Source of the DNA: Candidatus Heimdallarchaeota archaeon
GTDB taxonomy: Archaea; Asgardarchaeota; Heimdallarchaeia; Hodarchaeales; Hodarchaeaceae
Assembly (NCBI GenBank): GCA_011364965.1
Contig: RDOB01000001.1
Location: 252,026 to 265,961 of the forward strand
DNA length: 13,936 bases
Reading direction: 5' to 3'
The stretch's first letter is position 1, and each line of letters starts with the position of its first letter. The notes beneath the pieces are model-generated. The model did not search any database, was not told where the DNA came from, and saw nothing but the letters and a program-made list of their open reading frames with translations. The translations under genes were made by a program, and so were the position numbers. Below are positions 4,675-13,936 of the stretch, in pieces.

Positions 4675-4999
4675 AATTATGGGATTGGAGGTATTTACGA
4701 CCAAGATGAAGGCCGACTATTATTCCACCAATTCCATGCAATAAAGACAGACCTGTCTCGTGTGGAGCAACCTATCTGGAATCTAGACCTATTACCTGAA
4801 TGCTCCTCTCTAGAGGAAGCTTTTAGCTTTTTAAAAATCAATAGCTTATAATTGCCATATTTCCGACGCTTTTATGCGTTCTCTCCCCTCCGAACCTTGT
4901 GAATATTCAGAATGCCATTCGCTCTATTACAAGCAAAGGAAGTTCTGAAGGTGAGACGAGAAATCTGACAGAAGGAAATCATCAATAGAACCTCCAAAT

Positions 5000-5039
5000 C
5001 CAAGACCAGCTGGATTCTCATTTTTTTTATTAGGAGGTG
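5000..5039 (-). repeat. Degenerate copy A of the 16S 3'-end/trailer element
   Basis: + strand CCAAGACCAGCTGGAT (5000-5015) is identical to 6316-6331. TATTAGGAGGTG (5028-5039) is identical to 12157-12168, the 16S anti-SD end plus the first trailer bases. Confidence 0.75.
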
Positions 5040-5154
5040 CGTTGGGTAACCATTCTCACTTTTATTCAACATGTCCTTCTTCAGATTTGGAGAAAGATGA
5101 TTATAACAATCACCCCAAGATAATATCGTTATAAAGAATTAAGAAATTGGCGGA

Positions 5155-5205: not shown

Positions 5206-5868
5206 TTATTGCGGTCCTCCACCACCTATTGCTGTATAAATGGTTTGAGAAAAGCTATGTGTTATTGTAAACGTTTCATAAAGGATTGATTTGGACATCT
5301 CTCCTTTCACAATAACATCAGCATAAATATATAATTTCTGTCCATTTTGAATTGTAATATCAGGATTATAATCATCCCCACATGTCCACAGAAGATCTAC
5401 TGGAAGGAAAGCATACTTATTATCGAAGTAGTCAAACTCATAATAGAAATGAGTCCCTATAATCGTATTCAAACCAATATACTCATCATGCATAAATCCC
5501 CAATAATATTTATTATGAATTGAGTCATATATTGTTATGCTATCCCTTTTAATTCTAAGTCTGGTATATATATCTTCTATAGCTGACCAGTAACGATAAC
5601 CACAGATCATATTACCAAATGTTCCCTTGTCAAAGAGTTCAGATCTAAGCTGAACATACCTGATTATCTTTTTTTCACCATTATTATAAGAGTCTAATCC
5701 AATCTCTAAATCACTATCTACCATGACAAGAAGTTGACCATCAGCGTCTTTAATTTCGTTATACTTACTTTGTGTAATAGTCGATGCTTGTGCTATCACT
5801 GGGACAAGGAATATGACTATCAAGATGATAGCTGAAAACACCAATTTTTCTAGTTTTAACGACTTCAT
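5206..5868 (-). CDS. Secreted hypothetical protein
   Basis: 220-aa ORF with a basic N-terminus, hydrophobic core and AQA cleavage-like motif. No recognisable domain. Confidence 0.75.
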   Translation of the reverse strand: MKSLKLEKLVFSAIILIVIFLVPVIAQASTITQSKYNEIKDADGQLLVMVDSDLEIGLDSYNNGEKKIIRYVQLRSELFDKGTFGNMICGYRYWSAIEDIYTRLRIKRDSITIYDSIHNKYYWGFMHDEYIGLNTIIGTHFYYEFDYFDNKYAFLPVDLLWTCGDDYNPDITIQNGQKLYIYADVIVKGEMSKSILYETFTITHSFSQTIYTAIGGGGPQ

Positions 5869-6293
5869 TTTTTTCCCCTAACACTTTATATTCAGTTGTT
5901 TGCTAATAATTCCAAAGATGGATTTGTGTCATATTAACAATATTGAGAAGAATTGATTTTATCCAATAAAAGAATATTAGAATTCACTCCGAGCTTTTAG
6001 ATATCTCCAAATCCATGGAATCCATGAATTAGATCATTTCACAATTTATAAATGTATCTAAGGCTGACTCTCTTCTATCAATTAAATAATAATGTTCTCA
6101 TATAACAAATATGAAAAAATATACTTTTATTTGTGAATTGAGTTAACTAGAGAAATGAGAATGAGTTTTTCGCATAAAGATATCTTCAATTACCTTTCAG
6201 AATTTAATAATGAGGGTGAGATAAGTGACATGCTCTCAGGGGAGTTGTGAGTCCCAATAAACTCCAGATTTAAACCCTTGCAGGGAAAGGATC

Positions 6294-6465
6294 GACCTCG
6301 GCCTCATGATTGAAGCCAAGACCAGCTGGATATTCCCAATAGATTCAGGAAATTTTCTGTTCATCAGGTTTTTCTCTTCGATCAACCGATGTGGATCGAA
6401 AATATCCCATTCATGTCGTTAGGCTGTGGATTTGCCATACAAGAACCCAAAAAACCTATTAGAAA
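6294..6465 (-). repeat. Degenerate copy B of the 16S trailer element (structured)
   Basis: 6301-6332 matches 12073-12104 at 30/32. It has a 13-bp hairpin at 6294-6323. A 13-bp stem (6333-6345 with 6453-6465) is homologous to the stem at 12132-12165. Confidence 0.85.
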
Positions 6466-6702
6466 AGAAAAAATAAGCCATATATTAGTTAATCAAATTA
6501 AATAAGGAATTTAATTTCCTCTTTAAAGGATTTTTTCGGTCTCCTACTATTTCTACCTCATAGATTACGACACTAAGGTTACTATCAACATTTTAGCTGC
6601 TAATGGTGAATGTTGTTTGAATGATTGCCAAAGATATACATATAAATAACCGAATTCCAGGTCATTACCGAGACAAAGCAACTCAATCTGTTCAGTATAA
6701 AA

Positions 6703-6933
6703 GTGAATCAAATGAGATTCCATATTCCCCAACGAAGGTTAGAAGGTATTAGAAAAGATATTGAGGCATTAGCACATACAGGGATTTCTTCTTTAGAAAC
6801 AGGAGTTGATATGACTACGGATATAATGACTCTTTTTATAGATCGAATTCGAGCAGAGAACCCTACTTTAACAGAACCAGAAATTTTAAACCATGCTCGT
6901 GAATACATTTATCTTGGTCGGTCGAACTCTTGA
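6703..6933 (+). CDS. Putative antitoxin, MenA1 (Rv0078B)-like small helical protein
   Basis: 76 aa with 'RIRAENPTLTEPEI', resembling my recollection of MenA1-type antitoxins. Overlaps the downstream NTase start by 4 nt (TTGA). Confidence 0.6.
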   Translation: MNQMRFHIPQRRLEGIRKDIEALAHTGISSLETGVDMTTDIMTLFIDRIRAENPTLTEPEILNHAREYIYLGRSNS

Positions 6934-7499
6934 CTGTTGATGTTAAACTGAAGGATTTTATTCAGACTACGATAAGCTGTTTAGAAGAAAGCAGAATAAA
7001 ATATGTTTTAGTGGGTGGAGTAGCAGCTCTTATTTATGGCCGTCCTCGTACAACTCTTGATGTCGATATAGTGATAGATAGTGCTAATATTGAGGATGTT
7101 AAGAGATTAGAAACAACTTTGAAAGCCTATGGATTCTCATTACGAGATAATGAAATAGCTGAAGCACTAGGGGAAAAATCAAACTGTTCTGTCTTTCTAA
7201 AAGATTGTATCTATCGAATTGACATTCAGGGTACTTACTCACCTTTAGATTCCCGGTGTTTAAACAATCGATTATTGATGAAGATCTATGAACAAGACAC
7301 CTATATCCAGAAAGCAGAAGATTTAATTGTAGCAAAATTGGTCTATAGAAGCCCACAAGATTATGAAGATGTTCATGCTATCTTACTTCGGCAAAAGGAG
7401 AAATTAGATTACAATTACTTGAGATCCGTTGCTGCAATAGAGGGGATTGAAAGGCAATTAGATAAAATCCTATCTAGACTGAAAATCAAACCTATGTAA
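6930..7499 (+). CDS. Nucleotidyltransferase toxin-like protein (DUF6036 / MenT1 / AbiEii-like)
   Basis: YVLVGGVAALIYGRPRTTLDVDIV (GG...DxD NTase motif), EDLIVAKL and QDYEDV C-terminal motifs. Confidence 0.85.
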   Translation: MTVDVKLKDFIQTTISCLEESRIKYVLVGGVAALIYGRPRTTLDVDIVIDSANIEDVKRLETTLKAYGFSLRDNEIAEALGEKSNCSVFLKDCIYRIDIQGTYSPLDSRCLNNRLLMKIYEQDTYIQKAEDLIVAKLVYRSPQDYEDVHAILLRQKEKLDYNYLRSVAAIEGIERQLDKILSRLKIKPM

Positions 7500-7889
7500 A
7501 AAACATGAAAAAGACTAAGAGCGGACAGACAACAGACCTACAGCTCTGAGAAGGCTTAGATAGGGAGGAGAGCAACAATAAGAGAGACTATGGAGACTCC
7601 AACGAGAGATAGAGGCGAGAGGAAGAAGCATTCAGAGAAAATACAAAAAGAAAGAAATAATGATTGAGTATTTCGTTGAGATCGATTCTCTTGTAAGAGA
7701 AGAGAATCAAAATACACTTCCAAACTAATTAAATCAGGTTGATTCGGAATATAGAGAGATTTTTAACTACTAATAAGAAAATGATATAGTTTGTTAACGA
7801 TAGTTTTATAAATGAAAACATTGTACAATGATTTGAGAATTATTTGTAGACTAGCAGGTTAATAATAATATAAAAAACGTGACTAAAAG

Positions 7890-8204
7890 ATGAAAACAAC
7901 AGAAAAAGCCACAAAAGTATCACGAGCGAAAAGAATCTTAGAAGGGGAGAAACAACGGAGACATCTACTATTCTTAATAGAAGATAACCCAGGATTAACA
8001 GCGTACCAAATCTCACAGCGATTAGGATGGACAAGAGGGAAGGTAACCTATCATTTGAACAAACTCACCAACCAAGGAGAGCTCAGAAAAACAAGTATAG
8101 AAAATAACCCTCATCCCAAAAAAGTCTACCATATAGTCAAGTGGGAGAAGATGATAAACTGGGGTACCATTCCAGAGGAACAGAAGCCGAAAAAAACTAA
8201 GTAA
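7890..8204 (+). CDS. Winged helix-turn-helix transcriptional regulator (ArsR/HTH_24-like)
   Basis: IEDNPGLTAYQISQRLGWTRGKVTYHLNKLTNQGEL. Confidence 0.85.
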   Translation: MKTTEKATKVSRAKRILEGEKQRRHLLFLIEDNPGLTAYQISQRLGWTRGKVTYHLNKLTNQGELRKTSIENNPHPKKVYHIVKWEKMINWGTIPEEQKPKKTK

Positions 8205-8239
8205 ATAAGAAAAAGGGCAGGAAAACGCTCTTTAGCGAC

Positions 8240-8488
8240 CTAAATCCCTACCTCTGTTGGATAGTAAGTTACGCCTCCAGCTGTAGGGTGAGCTCTAAGT
8301 AACCCTTGAGCTACAAGAGACTTCAAAGGTTTTTTCAGCTTCCATTGCGCACGAGGCACAAGTTTTTTGCGAATACTCTCCATAGGAATATGCATGTTCA
8401 TCCGTGAGTCTAACAGCGAATAAGCAGCAAAAAGTACAGCGACTTCTTTTTGCGTTAAACGATCATCAGGTACAATACCAGTACTCAA
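8240..8488 (-). CDS. Small winged-helix protein
   Basis: LKSLVAQGLLRAHP...TYYPTEVG wing motif. GAGGAG precedes the TTG start, and a TTTATAT box lies at ~8531-8537 on the minus strand. Confidence 0.65.
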   Translation of the reverse strand: MSTGIVPDDRLTQKEVAVLFAAYSLLDSRMNMHIPMESIRKKLVPRAQWKLKKPLKSLVAQGLLRAHPTAGGVTYYPTEVGI

Positions 8489-8561
8489 GCTCCTCTAATC
8501 CTCCATCTCGAGTATCAATTGAGGGTGGACATATAAACATTTTGGTCAGAAAAATACTCTA

Positions 8562-8588
8562 AAGCCACTAAGAGCTGCTGGATAATCC
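8562..8588 (-). repeat. Possible highly degenerate copy D of the trailer core
   Basis: 8570-8588 AAGAGCTGCTGGATAATCC matches 6318-6336 AAGACCAGCTGGATATTCC at 16/19 and is preceded by AAGCC. Intergenic and in the same orientation, but the 13-bp hairpin is not evident. Confidence 0.35.
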
Positions 8589-8665
8589 TGAGATAGTTCC
8601 TGAAAGGAATCTAGCAAGTATCAGCTACATTTTCAACATCTAGGTCATAAATCCTTCTAATTCGC

Positions 8666-9277
8666 TCACTCTTCACGTTTCCTTCTGCGCGGAATGTTAA
8701 TCAAAACAAGGAATCCAAGAATTAGAAATTCCAAAGTGAATGCAGGAGTCGCCTGTGGGGGAATATGGTAATCTGATACATCAGTCCAAGGGGTGCGTAG
8801 ACCTAATGAAGGAACTCCCTCACTAATCACTCCAAAATCAATGAGAGTTTCGTCCACCAGAACTTGAAGATTAGTTTTATACGTGCAACGAGGGATGGTA
8901 GTGAAATTGTAAGACCAATACCGCAAGGGATGAAGAGTTACCGGTAGATCACTCACATTTAGAAGGATAATTTGACTCAAAAATTCAGTTCTATTCGTTT
9001 CATGGGTTCCAGAGAATGTCACATTCACCTGCTCAAGACGATGGGATTCTACATCCAAATTAGCAATAGCAAGGGTGAAAAAATCCAACGTGATCGTATC
9101 CCAGCATGTTTCATTAATACATCCTCCACACCAGCTGTATTCATGATCAGGAACCCGAATCTGGATAATAGATGAATTGGGAGGAGCTGTAGCAGGAATG
9201 GGACGACCGTGGACAATTAAAAGGAAAAGTAACGGTATAATACTCCATTTAAAAACAAATGAACAGCTTTGATTCAT
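8666..9277 (-). CDS. Secreted/cell-surface protein with C-terminal sorting signal (PGF-CTERM/Heimdall-CTERM-like)
   Basis: Signal peptide, GGCINETCWD motif, and C-terminus TPAF-TLEFLILGFLVLINIP-RRRKREE. Confidence 0.8.
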   Translation of the reverse strand: MNQSCSFVFKWSIIPLLFLLIVHGRPIPATAPPNSSIIQIRVPDHEYSWCGGCINETCWDTITLDFFTLAIANLDVESHRLEQVNVTFSGTHETNRTEFLSQIILLNVSDLPVTLHPLRYWSYNFTTIPRCTYKTNLQVLVDETLIDFGVISEGVPSLGLRTPWTDVSDYHIPPQATPAFTLEFLILGFLVLINIPRRRKREE

Positions 9278-9322
9278 CGTTATTCTCCTAAATTATCCTT
9301 ATTTCATTAATCATGTTACATA

Positions 9323-10309
9323 TTAAGGTTTTATAAAGATAATCACGGAAAAAGAAGGGAAATAAAGAGACTTACTGTCTTTCACTCCATCGAATTTTAT
9401 CTCATATTGCACTATCCAATCAAAGGTTATTGGATGTATTCTCACACTTTCATATTTGTTATCCCAGGTTTCTGCGCCGTCCATGATAACAGCTTCGATG
9501 TTAGGGTAGATAGTGGCGTTGTAGAGGTCTATTGCAGCATAGAGATGACAAATCTCATGAAGGATTGCACATTTCGTGCCAAATAATGGATTCTCCTCAA
9601 AATACACCCACCACTGAATGTATACGTATGTTCCTCTTGATACAGCCAAACAGCTTCCACAATATTCTTGTGCTTGAAAAGCTAACCCTATATCAAATCC
9701 ATGATTTTTCGGGGAGATCCCATAGGAATTGATCGTATAAATCGCATTTCAATCCCAATAATATTCAGAAAGATTTAATGCACAAGCTAACGCGTGTCTA
9801 CCATCATTAAAATAAGCATTAGTATTCCCCAACATCGCTGGATTCCAATCAAAGACAACTAAAGGCATAAATTGTTGATCTAATAGCTCAAATAACCCTT
9901 GAGACCAGTTATAGCCATTAGACATATTAGAGATTTTTAAGTTGTTGACATCAGCGATAAGCCCGTAGATATCCGTCCCATTGTCATCTAATATGGCTGA
10001 GAAATTACTTTCCAACATAATGGTTTGATAAACAATGTGTTTGGTGAGATTTTGCAGGATAGTGAACTCACTGTTAGCTGGTGCGCTAAGAGAATACCCC
10101 CAATCCTCACTAGCAGAGTAAATGTCCGTCACATCGTAGTTGCCAACGTTGAGAGCAAACCACCCATCCCAGGTAGAGCCTGAATAATCACTAGTGCCTT
10201 CAAAAACTTTAGGTATAACAATATCTGGGAGGAGGGGGATTTGTGTAGTAGATAACATCAGATCAGCGTGTACGATAGCCTGAGGAGAAATATCCAAATG
10301 AATGACCAA
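9323..10309 (-). pseudogene. Zinc metalloprotease (metzincin-like) reading frame interrupted by one in-frame TGA
   Basis: ORFs 9749-10309 and 9323-9649 are in the same frame. After the TGA (9749-9751) the frame reads NAIYTINSYGISPKNHGFDIGLAFQAQEYCGSCLAV without stops into the second ORF. It contains HEICHLYAAIDLY (HExxH...D) and a downstream IMD putative Met-turn. The true 5' end is uncertain. Confidence 0.75.
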
Positions 10310-10760
10310 TTATTCCATAATTTATCACAGTTTCATCGATTAACAACTGGACAGAAATGGTGGAAATACAACGGGGTAACCGCGTAAAATTACCCTGTCA
10401 GTAATAATGGGGATAGAGGACTACAGGAAGGTCTTTTGTGTCATTCAATATAATTTGGACAGTAAACGGAGCTTTATCTGTTTCATTAACCCCCTTGAAA
10501 GTTAATGTCACCTGTTCTAGAGTATGAACCTCAGTATCAAGGTTGACAACTATGAGTGCAAAATATGTGACTGTAATATAATCCCAACAATCTGTTCCAT
10601 TAATACAGCCTCCAGAATACCCTGATTCTGATTCAGGTATGCAAATACCAATTACTGACGAATCAGGAGGAGAAAGCACCGAAACGGGGGTAATCCCAAA
10701 CGAAATAAGGAAGTATATACTCAAGACCCAGTATAATTTTAGAAAATGCTTATGATTCAC
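10209..10760 (-). pseudogene. Paralog of the 8666-9277 protein with two in-frame TGA codons and no C-terminal anchor
   Basis: Homology continues past the ORF stop: HYY*QGNFTRLPRCISTISVQLLIDETVINYGII...GYRTR*SDVIYYTNPP versus LRYWSYNFTTIPRCTYKTNLQVLVDETLIDFGVI...GLRTPWTDVSDYHIPP. Ends at TAA 10209-10211. Confidence 0.85.
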
Positions 10761-10916
10761 TTAAGTCTCAATCCCAATTACTTTTTACCGTACAGGCTCG
10801 TTTTATACGGTTTACTAGAACCAAAAAGAGAACGAGAGAGCCTTATTTGTACATATAAGTCAAGGATATTAGCCTTAAGGAGGAGGTTGGTATATAAAAA
10901 CTTCTATGAAAAATCA

Positions 10917-11250
10917 TCAAGCATTTATGCGCGTTTTACGGATACTATACAGAATGACACCCAAAATCAGGGGAACAACTAGGAAACCAGAATTGGGGTG
11001 AGAACTAGTAGAAGAGGAAGATTGGTTACGTAATTCTAGCCATCTAGTAATATTGCTGACATAGAGGTGGCCTGTTCCTACATTGATGAAATAACCTAGG
11101 CGTATTATTTTAGTTTCTGGTGGAAGGTAAAAACATCGACTACCAATAGAATGTATTCTTCTTGCTTGTCCATATATTCACATGGACACGGATTAATTTC
11201 CTATCAACTCGTTCTGTAAATTCCAATGCTTGTTTCCAATCCCTTTAGTA
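10917..11250 (-). pseudogene. 3' remnant of a surface-protein gene with C-terminal sorting signal (not in ORF track)
   Basis: Minus frame ...FYLPPETKIIRLGYFINVGTGHLYVSNITRWLELRNQSSSSTSSHPNSGFLVVPLILGVILYSIRKTRINA*. The upstream part is broken by stops or a frameshift near 11140-11195. The 5' limit is approximate. Confidence 0.6.
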
Positions 11251-11313
11251 TAAATTCAACCGACCAGAGTAAGTGGGGATGTAAGGCGATTATATAAATG
11301 AAATTTATCAGCA

Positions 11314-11730
11314 TTAAGCTGTATACGTGAAATAAGAGAGCTTAAATAGCTTTTCAGAGAAGAAAAAATAGTTAGGAAAATCATCCCAATTCCAGTGATC
11401 CGCAAATGCTTCCAAGGTCTCAAATTCAGTATAAGTTACATCTTTCCAACTTTCGTTTTTAGAATCGTTAGATATGAGTTTGAGAACCATGGTATAAAGA
11501 AAGGGGACTGAATCGAAGTCAGAAGCAGTAAGATTAACAACAGAGTTAGTATTCATTTCAGAATTACTAATTCTAGTAAGTACAAGCATATATTGGATCG
11601 GTCCTCCGACGTCAGGAGCAAACAACATCATGCAAAGAAAAATACTTCCACAAAATGCAGAGAACGTGATAATACAAATTAAACTGGAAAAGATCACCTT
11701 TTTTTTGCCAACCAGATTCAACGTAATCAC
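11314..11730 (-). CDS. Membrane-anchored hypothetical protein
   Basis: 138 aa: KKK plus an N-terminal TM helix, then a small soluble domain (VVNLTASDFDSVPFL). Confidence 0.7.
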   Translation of the reverse strand: MITLNLVGKKKVIFSSLICIITFSAFCGSIFLCMMLFAPDVGGPIQYMLVLTRISNSEMNTNSVVNLTASDFDSVPFLYTMVLKLISNDSKNESWKDVTYTEFETLEAFADHWNWDDFPNYFFFSEKLFKLSYFTYTA

Positions 11731-11854
11731 GTATATCTAATAATTCAAATTCAATAAACCTAATTGGTCAAAGGGATTAATATAGCTATTGACTAGAGAA
11801 AGAGACGAAGGATAAAGAGTGCAAATTTTCAAAACCTAGACTTTGAATCAATCA

Positions 11855-12019
11855 CTAATTAATAATTCTATTTACTCAAGATGGTCCATCAAAGTACTCA
11901 ATATAGGTAGTGACGTCATCATCTGTATCCTCATGTAAATACCAACCACTAAAAACAATTGTTGAACTCATAATATAACCAAGACCGCCAACATGTCCTC
12001 CTCCGTTAATTGCATGGAA
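11855..12019 (-). pseudogene. Possible gene remnant (extracellular beta-rich fragment)
   Basis: Frame FHAINGGGHVGGLGYIMSSTIVFSGWYLHEDTDDDVTTYIEYFDGPS*VNRIIN* looks protein-like but has no clear start. Confidence 0.35.
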
Positions 12020-12049
12020 TTAAAGATTGACTCATGCATTTATCACCAA

Positions 12050-12160
12050 AAACAAGAAAAATCTAGGCCCCAGCCTCAGGATTGAAGCCAGGACCAGCTG
12101 GATAGCCAAGCTCGAAACCTCGAACCTGCTTCTCCCAATAGATGTGAATCTATATCTATT
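12050..12160 (-). ncRNA. Structured 3' trailer of the 16S fragment (copy C): three hairpins and a U-rich end
   Basis: Stem 12154-12165/12132-12143 (12 bp, overlaps the anti-SD), hairpin 12104-12130, 13-bp hairpin 12066-12095, then TTTTTCTTGTTTTT. G-U pairs favour a minus-strand RNA. Confidence 0.65.
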
Positions 12161-12305
12161 AGGAGGTGAGTACTGTCCCAGAGCGGCGTACTCGGGAAAT
12201 CCAGCCGCAGGTTCCCCTACAGCTACCTTGTTACGACTTCAGCCTACTCAACAAGAGTACCATCGAATACGATATTATCCTGTAGCCTCTAGCAGATCCG
12301 TCTCG
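12161..12305 (-). rRNA. rrs: Isolated 3'-terminal fragment of archaeal 16S rRNA (h44 from ~1416, h45, anti-SD) containing an intron
   Basis: Minus strand ...TGAGTAGGCTGAAGTCGTAACAAGGTAGCTGTAGGGGAACCTGCGGCTGGA[30 nt]TCACCTCCT. Upstream CGAG-ACGGATCTGCTA-GAGGC...TTCGA-TGGTACTCTTGT-TGA fits helix 44. The universal CACACCGCCCGTC and everything 5' of it are absent from the adjacent sequence. Confidence 0.93.
12170..12199 (-). other. 30-nt bulge-helix-bulge (BHB)-type rRNA intron
   Basis: Insert TTTCCCGAGTACGCCGCTCTGGGACAGTAC between GGA and TCACCTCCT. Central 4-bp helix GCUG/CAGU, 3-nt bulges GA^U and AC^U, and intron stem UCCCGAG/CUC(U)GGGA. Cutting after the second bulge nucleotide on each strand restores GGCUGGAUCACCUCCU exactly. 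Confidence 0.8.
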
Positions 12306-12348
12306 AGATACCTAGATTGAAATATAACCTGATCTGTCTCTAGTGGGG

Positions 12349-12381
12349 AGGAAAAGAAGGAAAAAAAGCGGATAAACTCCG
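12349..12381 (-). terminator. Putative terminator of the 330-aa gene
   Basis: Minus strand CGGA-GTTTA-TCCG-C-TTTTTTT-CCTTCTTTT. Confidence 0.55.
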
Positions 12382-12438
12382 TAAGGTGCATCTCTGTATG
12401 GAACAAAAGAAAAGAATAAATCAAGTTGGTGGATGAAA

Positions 12439-13431
12439 TCACTCCTCAAGTCTTTTGAGCATTCCAAAAAAAATCAAAACAAGAAGCAAGGAGCAGAGGA
12501 AAATTATCTGAAAAAAACGAGTTCCAGAAGGGAATGAAACCATTGGATTAGAAGAATGGACGGAAGACAGGGAAGAAGTATGGTGATTACTTATTATTTC
12601 ATAAGTATAATTAAGAAGAGATTCAAAAAAGTATTTGGCACATAAAGAAACGTAAATTCGTTGCCCTGTGCCACTATCGTTATCTATTGTCGTCCAAATA
12701 TAATCAATCGAACCATCCCACTGAGTTCTCAGACTTAAAATGGTTCCTCCTTTGTTAAGAAGACCAGTATGAGAAGGAGAATAAATCCAGAACTGCCAAT
12801 CACGTGAAGAATTTACTTGAAGGTAATTTTCAAACAATGTCCAAACAGCGGAATCAAAGGTAACAGTAAAAGAGAAGGAGCGATTATACGGATATAGGGA
12901 GGGAGGAACTCCAGCAATAACTTCATAATCGATTAAAACGGTACAATCATCAAAGTAAATGGCCTCTAAAAAAGTTCGTGATTCTGAATCATTTAGATAC
13001 CACTCATACGTGAGTTCCATACGAGTGAGTTCTTCTAAATCCTGATAATAACGAACCCACATAATGTCATAGGTAAAGAAATTAGATCCATTAATAGATA
13101 GTGAGACAAAACCAGTCTGTTCTTCTGATGGAGGAGAATCAGGGGTTTCTATCCAAAAAAGGAAAGGTTCACTATCAGTGAGGGAGGGAAAAATAAGAAG
13201 GGAGGAGAAAAATCCCCAAGAGGTATTGATCGTAACATTATGAGTGAAATACCTTGAATAAAAACCAATTGGAAATGAGGAATCTTTGATTAGGTCAGTA
13301 GCAAACCAGTAGACCTCTAAATCATCATTTGGGACAGAAATTGTAGGAGAAGGGAGAGTCATGATGCTTCCAGCCCAGATGAGGGTTAAAAGCACAAAAG
13401 AAAGGAAATTTAGTGACTTTCTTGGATACAC
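12439..13431 (-). CDS. Cell-surface hypothetical protein (signal peptide, Ser-rich linker, C-terminal TM plus basic tail)
   Basis: 330 aa with a hydrophobic N-terminus, many NxS/T sequons, and C-terminus SFP...FFQIIFLCSLLLVLIFFGMLKRLEE. Confidence 0.8.
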   Translation of the reverse strand: MYPRKSLNFLSFVLLTLIWAGSIMTLPSPTISVPNDDLEVYWFATDLIKDSSFPIGFYSRYFTHNVTINTSWGFFSSLLIFPSLTDSEPFLFWIETPDSPPSEEQTGFVSLSINGSNFFTYDIMWVRYYQDLEELTRMELTYEWYLNDSESRTFLEAIYFDDCTVLIDYEVIAGVPPSLYPYNRSFSFTVTFDSAVWTLFENYLQVNSSRDWQFWIYSPSHTGLLNKGGTILSLRTQWDGSIDYIWTTIDNDSGTGQRIYVSLCAKYFFESLLNYTYEIISNHHTSSLSSVHSSNPMVSFPSGTRFFQIIFLCSLLLVLIFFGMLKRLEE

Positions 13432-13481
13432 TAATTAGTCTCCAGAAGGTATCAATGCTTTTCAAAATGAACTTTCTGATA

Positions 13482-13936
13482 TTAATTCTTTTTCAAGCGA
13501 TCCTTTAATTGGGGCCTTTTATAGACAAGAACTAGTAATATAGAGGTTATTAAAATAAAGAGGGAAAAAATCACAATAGAATTGGGAATGGAGAGGTTTG
13601 AAGGTAAAGTGGTTGTTTTGTCTACTCTTCGCAATTGCAGGATGATAAAACCAGCTGATCCATGAGCTAAATAAAGGTACGACCCCTGGATAACAATATC
13701 AGAACCAGATCCAAAAACAGAAAGAAATCTGGTCATTTCTATTGGATCAAAAGAATCATCAATGTTTATCATCCTCACTCCATCTTCTGTGGAAACATAA
13801 ATGTAAGAATCATTGATAACCACAGAATAAGCGCAAAAATAATCATGTAGAGTACCATTGTATTGAACTACTTTTGCAGGTCTAATAATATTCCCTACAT
13901 ATATGATTTCCAAACCTTTCTTTCCATATGCAATAA
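13482..13936 (-). CDS. LVIVD-repeat surface protein, 3' part (5' end beyond window)
   Basis: SVVINDSYIYVSTEDGVRMINI and DIVIQGSYLYLAHGSAGFIILQL. The frame stays open to the window edge (IAYGKKGLEII). C-terminal TM plus KR tail. Confidence 0.85.
   Translation of the reverse strand, partial: IAYGKKGLEIIYVGNIIRPAKVVQYNGTLHDYFCAYSVVINDSYIYVSTEDGVRMINIDDSFDPIEMTRFLSVFGSGSDIVIQGSYLYLAHGSAGFIILQLRRVDKTTTLPSNLSIPNSIVIFSLFILITSILLVLVYKRPQLKDRLKKN

Follow-up and report, generated by a model that had tools for sequence, protein, structure and literature searches.

The orphan 16S rRNA fragment of this Heimdall-group archaeon is probably a non-functional, decaying partial duplicate of the 3' end of its own small subunit (SSU) gene, made by repeated recombination in the DNA behind the 16S. 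The fragment duplicates a gene end that is found upstream of it, it is one of a series of repeats, it has decayed, and it is present in one haplotype of the population and absent from another. Host homologous recombination, rather than a dedicated site-specific recombinase, probably made the copies. The window, by which is meant the whole stretch of 13,936 nt that was analysed, is positions 252026-265961 of contig C13 (RDOB01000001.1), with its right end being the end of the contig, in an assembly (G000) of 2.97 Mb in 16 contigs that is 87% complete and has a GC content of 35%.

Homology to the SSU 3' end is confirmed on the minus strand of the window at 12161-12305. When the stretch is isolated cmscan finds a 5'-truncated SSU 3' end (45.8 bits, E 9e-12), a lineage SSU profile matches it over profile positions 1364-1471 (nhmmer, E 2.6e-19), and blastn against four SSU genes of the same genus aligns 107 nt with 82-84% identity. 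Rfam scans of the whole window, at gathering and E<=10 thresholds, gave no match to the orphan, because cmscan allows truncated matches solely at the ends of the input sequence. The earlier note had recognised the decoding-site strand, helix 45 (h45), the anti-Shine-Dalgarno (anti-SD) and a trailer from the letters alone, and these searches bear it out. Its abrupt stop of similarity is equally real: the homology begins sharply at 12305 (CGAGACGG) with distal helix 44 (h44), and upstream of this position there is no rRNA homology, decayed or otherwise, with alignment scores equal to those of shuffled sequence. The small details it listed can also be read in the sequence, these being a palindrome at the breakpoint (TCTCGAGA, 12301-12308), an 11/13 direct repeat (12295-12307 vs 12331-12343), a TATA-like TTATAT at 12322-12327, ~20 nt upstream of the fragment start, and a terminator-like element. 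The orphan and its surroundings are made up of the following parts.

12161-12305, minus strand: orphan SSU rRNA 3' fragment, from distal h44 to the anti-SD tail (cmscan, nhmmer, alignments first with 7 functional SSU genes and later with 12).
12240-12305, minus strand: degraded h44 remnant, without the 5' strand of the helix base (stem mismatches, z = -0.6, changed invariant sites).
12200-12239, minus strand: decoding-site AAGUCGUAACAAGG (12239-12226), h45 with a GGGGAA loop, and GGAU (alignments).
12170-12199, minus strand: 30-nt hairpin insert between GGAU and CACCUCCU, a candidate bulge-helix-bulge (BHB) mini-intron (same-site insert in the upstream gene end; BHB layout read by hand).
12157-12169, minus strand: UCACCUCCUAAUA, the SSU 3' terminus (anti-SD) with the first genus-conserved trailer bases (alignments).
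12069-12156, minus strand: native SSU trailer, cut after its first hairpin (alignments with functional trailers and the upstream copy; motif statistics).
11886-12068, minus strand: right-hand copy of a 183-nt direct repeat (~98% identity to 5385-5567 of the sister assembly L038).
12069-13936, minus strand: right-hand 1.87 kb of a 6.85-kb present/absent segment (missing in the run assemblies L060 and L061, composite positions 5568-12418).
12361-12382, minus strand: terminator-like hairpin and T7 run, downstream of a 330-aa ORF and upstream of the orphan (sequence reading).

The 1.87-kb part holds the 330-aa ORF (12439-13431), the orphan and the C-terminus of a 698-aa LVIVD protein (13482-13936). 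The orphan occurs once in the 2.97-Mb assembly, no other SSU sequence was found there, and it is absent from 21 other genomes of the genus. An exact-match scan of JGI metagenome contigs for the orphan h44 gave no match, and the same-genus single-contig genomes G010, G007 and G015 are uninformative as they lack even AAGTCGTAACAAGGTA.

The fragment had been described as well preserved, and whilst the SSU homology is significant the description holds only in part. Against 12 functional SSU genes the orphan is changed at 7 of 85 lineage-invariant columns, all from G/C to A/T, with six of the seven changes read without the species' own functional h44, which is unassembled; in leave-one-out comparison each of the 12 functional genes differs at 0-1 invariant columns. 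The changed invariant sites in the h44 remnant are 12297, 12291, 12272, 12256, 12253 and 12246, and in h45 there is a U at 12221 where all functional genes, and the upstream gene end described below, have C. The GC content of the orphan is 49.5%, compared to 57.4% for functional genes. Functional relatives form a clean h44 hairpin in 7/7 cases, whereas the canonical h44 of the orphan has three consecutive outer-stem mismatches and a folding energy no better than that of shuffled sequence (z = -0.6), and at the base of h44 the 5' strand (GUCGCAGCACG) is absent. The orphan is decaying under relaxed selection.

The junction between non-rRNA sequence and h44 is reproduced in four Logan assemblies from different runs, at 99.9-100% identity, and likewise in the separately deposited GCA_016839295.1 from the same population, which is 99.95% identical over 8 kb. 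The insert and anti-SD tail are also covered by three of the five assemblies that reproduce the junction.

The source of the duplicate is found upstream. Two run assemblies, L060 and L061, start in the rRNA sense with a second SSU 3' end, in the order AGGTAGCCGTAGGGGAACCTGCGGCTGGAT, a 30-nt insert, CACCTCCTAATA and a complete trailer. This upstream end has the functional h45 sequence GTAGCCGTAGG, is identical in L060 and L061 over 160 nt, and matches the orphan at 144 of 160 positions over the shared visible part. It is co-oriented with the orphan and lies 615 nt upstream of the end of the sister contig, which places it ~12.8 kb upstream of the orphan. It is visible only as the last ~68 nt of the 16S, as the contigs begin inside a universally conserved stretch, which is expected where assembly graphs branch; it is presumably attached to a complete 16S gene. 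Homology, truncation, relaxed constraint and an intact-looking upstream copy, of which the last ~68 nt can be seen, together make the orphan an rRNA pseudogene fragment. As both the insert and the trailer are kept, the orphan, which runs over ~240 bases from distal h44 to the first trailer hairpin, was copied from genomic DNA.

L060 and L061 represent a short haplotype that is without the 6.85-kb segment carrying the gene for the 698-aa LVIVD protein, the 330-aa ORF and the orphan. The orphan is therefore dispensable, being absent from a natural haplotype. In the long haplotype the segment is flanked by the ~98% identical 183-nt direct repeats, with the short haplotype keeping a single copy, so that the segment comes and goes in the population through recombination between the repeats, and repeat-mediated rearrangement is active at this locus. 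The paralogous copy of the orphan's downstream region at L038 5385-6104 is preceded by nothing rRNA-like. The LVIVD-repeat protein is intact in the Logan assemblies (L038 8910-11005), and in the deposited sister genome (L034 1308-3404) its gene is called as two, of 384 and 297 aa, which fits a 1-nt indel. Other short intergenic repeats of 48-120 nt, 82-90% identical and in both orientations, are scattered in the locus (window 5023-5123, 6233-6477 and 6956-7003; L038 1177-1347, 3833-3951, 6088-6185, 8423-8553 and 8670-8717).

Comparison of the two gene ends also bears on the 30-nt insert before the anti-SD, which is found in the orphan (12170-12199, minus strand) and at the same site in the upstream end (L060 rc nt 31-60). 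As the real gene end has a same-site insert, it is a native feature of the SSU of this species and not a product of decay. The inserts differ at 11 of 30 positions, and within the 7-bp insert stem pairing is kept at three pairs that have changed on both strands (U-A to G-C, G-C to A-U and A-U to G-C), with one further pair becoming a wobble and one broken. Read by hand, the flanks of the insert give a relaxed BHB fit. GCUG is paired to CAGC, for which the orphan has CAGU; the bulges, of 3 nt each, are GAU and AGU (the latter being ACU in the orphan), and the inner helix is 8 bp long. Were the RNA cut and ligated as this layout predicts, GGAUCACCUCCU would be restored. The insert is thus a candidate mini-intron between h45 and the anti-SD, for which the covariation gives support. 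In G021, another genome of the class, a 31-nt insert sits a few bases further upstream, the SSU being intact otherwise.

The orphan is not the only trace of the SSU end in this region. Within its trailer AUCCAGCUGG (12103-12094, minus strand) is complementary to the SSU's own CGGCUGGAU. The motif ATCCAGCTGGTCY, which is conserved in pre-rRNA because it is the complement of CGGCUGGAU, has exactly three occurrences in the 2.97-Mb assembly, each of them on the minus strand of the window (5003, 6319, 12091), with a chance expectation for the window of 0.15, and a fourth co-oriented copy is found upstream in L038. Four co-oriented SSU-end/trailer copies (R1-R4), with the orphan being R2, punctuate the accessory-gene region downstream of the 16S. 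The two that lie at lower positions of the window than the orphan, identified by alignments and motif search, are as follows.

6232-6394, minus strand: R3, a co-oriented SSU trailer copy with no rRNA kept, its core running from 6344 to 6232 through to CAACUCCCCUGA.
4995-5039, minus strand: R4, a short co-oriented relic consisting of CACCTCCTAATA, an A-run and GAGAATCCAGCTGGTCTTGG.

Aligned to functional trailers, the four copies all have different 5' and 3' extents. R1 and R3 keep ~130 nt or more of trailer and no rRNA; the orphan keeps the most rRNA of the four, yet its trailer is cut after the first hairpin; and the start of R4 is exactly the CACC at which the insert of the orphan stops. Other assemblies gave no alternative junctions at R3 or R4, L071 and L075 being collinear. 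The SSU and large subunit (LSU) trailers and several of the repeat copies end in the same motif, GGTCTGATGTCTGTNCGCTG (SSU trailers at L060 rc ~262-281 and L038 ~4020; LSU for example at C12 ~514900), possibly a signal common to both for pre-rRNA processing, or a K-turn-like one.

A comparable series lies behind the LSU. The sole LSU sequence in the organism's own genome is an orphan domain VI (C12:515019-515353, 228 bits) in which the sarcin-ricin loop is intact and there is an expansion of 56 nt. There are ~17 co-oriented LSU-end/trailer copies on C12:461000-525507, running to the contig end (of which L031 covers C12 505508-525507), and 3 more on C8. These consist of the last ~20 nt of LSU rRNA with ~140 nt of trailer and are spaced 1-6 kb apart, the blocks between them holding 1-6 genes save for one 24-kb block with 17 ORFs. 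Ten isolated LSU domain VI pieces are found in 7 genomes of the genus, with conserved trailers, one sharp common 5' boundary and unrelated upstream flanks. Two contigs each carry two such pieces in direct orientation, several pieces are visibly degraded, and a search of 41 genomes of the class showed no such piece beyond the genus. One relative has a contiguous genus-type LSU (G005:C44).

Across the repeats the blocks contain 1-9 genes in mixed orientation, and paralogs in other blocks are found for about one ORF in four, at least 8 Ras-like GTPases among them, which shows that duplication is at work here. Other block genes are toxin-antitoxin, surface-protein and hypothetical genes, and an LRR protein gene adjoins the 16S end. 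Some VapC toxins are known to cleave the sarcin-ricin loop, and PIN-domain (VapC-like) genes end 24-48 nt upstream of LSU domain VI orphans that bear this loop (G013:C70:10288-10692, L030; G001:C52:6638-7033, L028); the adjacency could be coincidence in toxin-antitoxin-rich regions. A native downstream gene for the LSU orphans was considered and rejected, as the flanks are not syntenic.

The downstream flank of the LSU orphan on G002:C65 (L027) has 89% protein identity over 593 aa to the upstream flank of that on G013:C70 (L030), inverted, which suggests inversions with breakpoints at LSU orphans. In other families of the class two contigs, G030:C1 at its end (136836) and G044:C49 at its start, stop at ~2702-2717 of the LSU model, which is also where the domain VI orphans have their 5' boundary. 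These may be assembly breaks at the repeat boundary, which is only suggestive, and the ending of the G030 LSU at model position 2717 was rejected as a real end because the contig stops there.

The genes that flank the intact SSU in the relative G016:C20 (L032) are present in the organism's own genome at C12:389000-413000, rearranged, with one flank inverted and a 5.7-kb segment interposed. No rRNA trace was found in this syntenic slot (C12 ~389-413 kb), so the SSU locus was relocated or reorganised between these species. That the orphan is an in-situ relic of a former SSU locus was rejected, as it shares no genes with the SSU loci of relatives, and so was a link to the ~750-nt SSU insertion of G008, which lies at about position 731 and not at the orphan boundary.

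How then might the orphan have arisen? It is envisaged that DNA would be inserted or duplicated repeatedly just behind the 16S via recombination within the 16S end/trailer sequence, either by a Campbell-type insertion of circular DNA carrying homology to the end or trailer or by unequal crossing-over. Each event would leave a displaced copy of the homologous stretch downstream, and these copies, being unneeded, would decay under the AT-biased mutation of the genome, with the orphan now riding on a 6.85-kb segment that comes and goes through its flanking 183-nt repeats. Recombination within the rRNA end and trailer is favoured because no recombinase was found on the orphan-bearing contigs or between the 16S end and the orphan, and the extents of R1-R4 all differ. 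Against this reading, the only documented polymorphism uses the 183-nt repeat and not the trailer repeats, and no trailer repeats are found downstream of intact SSU genes in relatives, including 10 kb beyond the G016 SSU.

The earlier note had proposed that the fragment is the displaced original 3' end, or att site, left when an element integrated into a 16S gene and supplied a replacement end, and had pointed to a complete co-oriented 16S upstream with a recombinase nearby as the evidence to look for. Part of this was found, as a co-oriented 3' end is present ~12.8 kb upstream, albeit with only the last ~68 nt of the gene in view, with accessory DNA between and further scars beyond; the recombinase was not found and the boundaries vary. 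It is unlikely that the orphan and its sister repeats are att scars of integrative elements that have a dedicated recombinase, target rRNA 3' ends and carry a replacement end, with the recombinase gene lost or located at the head of the array, which is not assembled. Accessory DNA is indeed flanked by direct, co-oriented repeats of the target 3' end, R4 begins exactly at the CACC of the orphan's insert boundary, and the ten LSU orphans of 7 genomes share their one 5' boundary despite unrelated upstream flanks, for which a site-specific process or a single ancient event is the easier explanation. The compensatory differences in the insert are those expected if one copy came from the functional gene of another lineage. 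In Heimdallarchaeum the elements HeimM2 and HeimV2 have a specific integration site directly behind the 16S (PMC8813620), and a dedicated site-specific system is possible given this integration, the common LSU boundary and the unassembled array heads. On the other hand, PF00589 has no match on the orphan-bearing contigs of 5 genomes, its matches in the organism's own genome being confined to C9 and C1, and no recombinase or endonuclease domain is found in the genes between the 16S end and the orphan or beside the orphan. The extents of R1-R4 differ at both ends, and the blocks are paralogous duplicates rather than self-contained elements.

A more speculative suggestion, and a doubtful one, is that the co-oriented rRNA-end/trailer repeats behind both the 16S and the 23S are the recombination sites of an undescribed rRNA-anchored, integron-like gene-capture system of Asgard archaea, with trailer hairpins as portable attachment sites; if so, the 16S orphan would be a cassette boundary that happened to keep more of the gene. 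Archaeal integrons are known (Ghaly et al. 2022, PMC9668308). In common with integrons and CALINs, many co-oriented structured repeats part short accessory blocks, one end is anchored and there is no integrase inside the array, but here the repeats are rRNA ends and trailers rather than attC and the blocks hold 1-9 genes in both orientations. No IntI was found in the rRNA-end repeat arrays, the heads of which are unassembled.

It is improbable that the orphan or the trailer repeats are kept for an RNA or DNA function, be it as a 3'-UTR or terminator/processing module of the 330-aa gene, as an anti-SD decoy or as a folded gene-capture recombination site. The insert stem and the first trailer hairpin stay paired through compensatory changes (R2 vs R3 in the case of the hairpin), but these changes may all belong to the functional gene copy. 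The TTATAT upstream of the fragment is unremarkable at 35% GC, and whilst most LSU orphans have the end of a co-oriented ORF immediately before them, the 16S orphan is missing from a natural haplotype and from the 21 other genomes of the genus, and its invariant rRNA sites are decaying toward A/T.

Fragmented rRNAs occur in organelles and protists, and split or permuted archaeal tRNA and SRP RNA genes are joined via BHB processing. The orphan resembles these in being an rRNA piece encoded apart in an organism with BHB-type RNA processing, and archaeal BHB splicing could in principle join separate pieces. The earlier note had accordingly suggested an independently transcribed part of a split or trans-spliced 16S, or the last exon behind a multi-kb intron, and the lack of another SSU in the assembly, together with an LSU likewise present solely as its 3' domain, might seem to favour the orphan being a working part of a 16S that is split, trans-spliced or interrupted by an intron. 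Both suggestions are refuted and such a part is extremely improbable, as h45, insert, anti-SD and the entire trailer are all present at the upstream gene end itself, so that the main gene has no gap to fill, and as the orphan is dispensable, being missing in two runs of the short haplotype besides the other genomes of the genus, and is decaying, with the 5' strand of the h44 base absent, h44 degraded and invariant sites mutated. In contrast to fragmented rRNA genes, the break also falls inside a conserved helix strand and not in a variable loop. Missing rRNA genes are ordinary for an 87%-complete MAG, and the LSU orphans are multiple and partly decayed per genome with a contiguous LSU in G005:C44. 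Lastly, a chimeric assembly artefact, which the earlier note had kept open, can be dismissed almost with certainty, for although the orphan sits 1.6 kb from the contig end and breaks at a conserved/variable rRNA boundary, where assembly graphs tangle, the identical junction in four independent run-level assemblies and one deposited genome contradicts it.

The preferred reading, a decaying duplicate made by recombination behind the 16S, has a close likeness in Haloquadratum walsbyi, in which an imperfect, 5'-truncated copy of tRNA-Thr lies 6.7 kb downstream of the intact gene with no integrase nearby (PMC3119063, which also documents repeat-mediated deletions). As there, the orphan is a 5'-truncated, imperfect and co-oriented copy of a stable-RNA 3' end lying kilobases downstream, with accessory or hypothetical genes between and no integrase. 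It differs from the truncated tRNA or tmRNA remnants of att sites in being rRNA, in having four copies of differing extent that reach far into the trailer, and in that no element core or integrase has been identified for it. A second likeness is with Ca. Heimdallarchaeum, where HeimM2 and HeimV2 are described in the relevant passages of Wu et al. 2022 (PMC8813620) as integrating directly after the single 16S gene, between the 16S and tRNA-Arg, with a homing-endonuclease-like gene. The host is again a Heimdall-group Asgard with foreign or accessory DNA immediately behind the 16S, but the orphan locus has neither a homing-endonuclease-like gene nor a tRNA, and those passages do not mention duplicated 16S ends or a series of trailer repeats (PMC8813620). 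No description of a series of rRNA-end/trailer repeats behind rRNA genes was found in the literature searched.

The orphan itself is therefore an ordinary object, a decaying partial gene duplicate, in the unusual setting of an rRNA-anchored repeat series in an Asgard genome. An Asgard 16S that is split or trans-spliced no longer comes into question, and the orphan is best annotated as a pseudogene remnant. Binning by 16S, estimates of copy number and primer or probe matches can all be misled by such orphans. Set against the real gene end, it has a use of its own in lending covariation support to the 30-nt candidate mini-intron. In this lineage genes are gained, duplicated and lost at a hotspot directly behind each of the two rRNA genes, and the repeat series that mark it could help to explain accessory-gene flux and the breaks at rRNA operons in Asgard assemblies.
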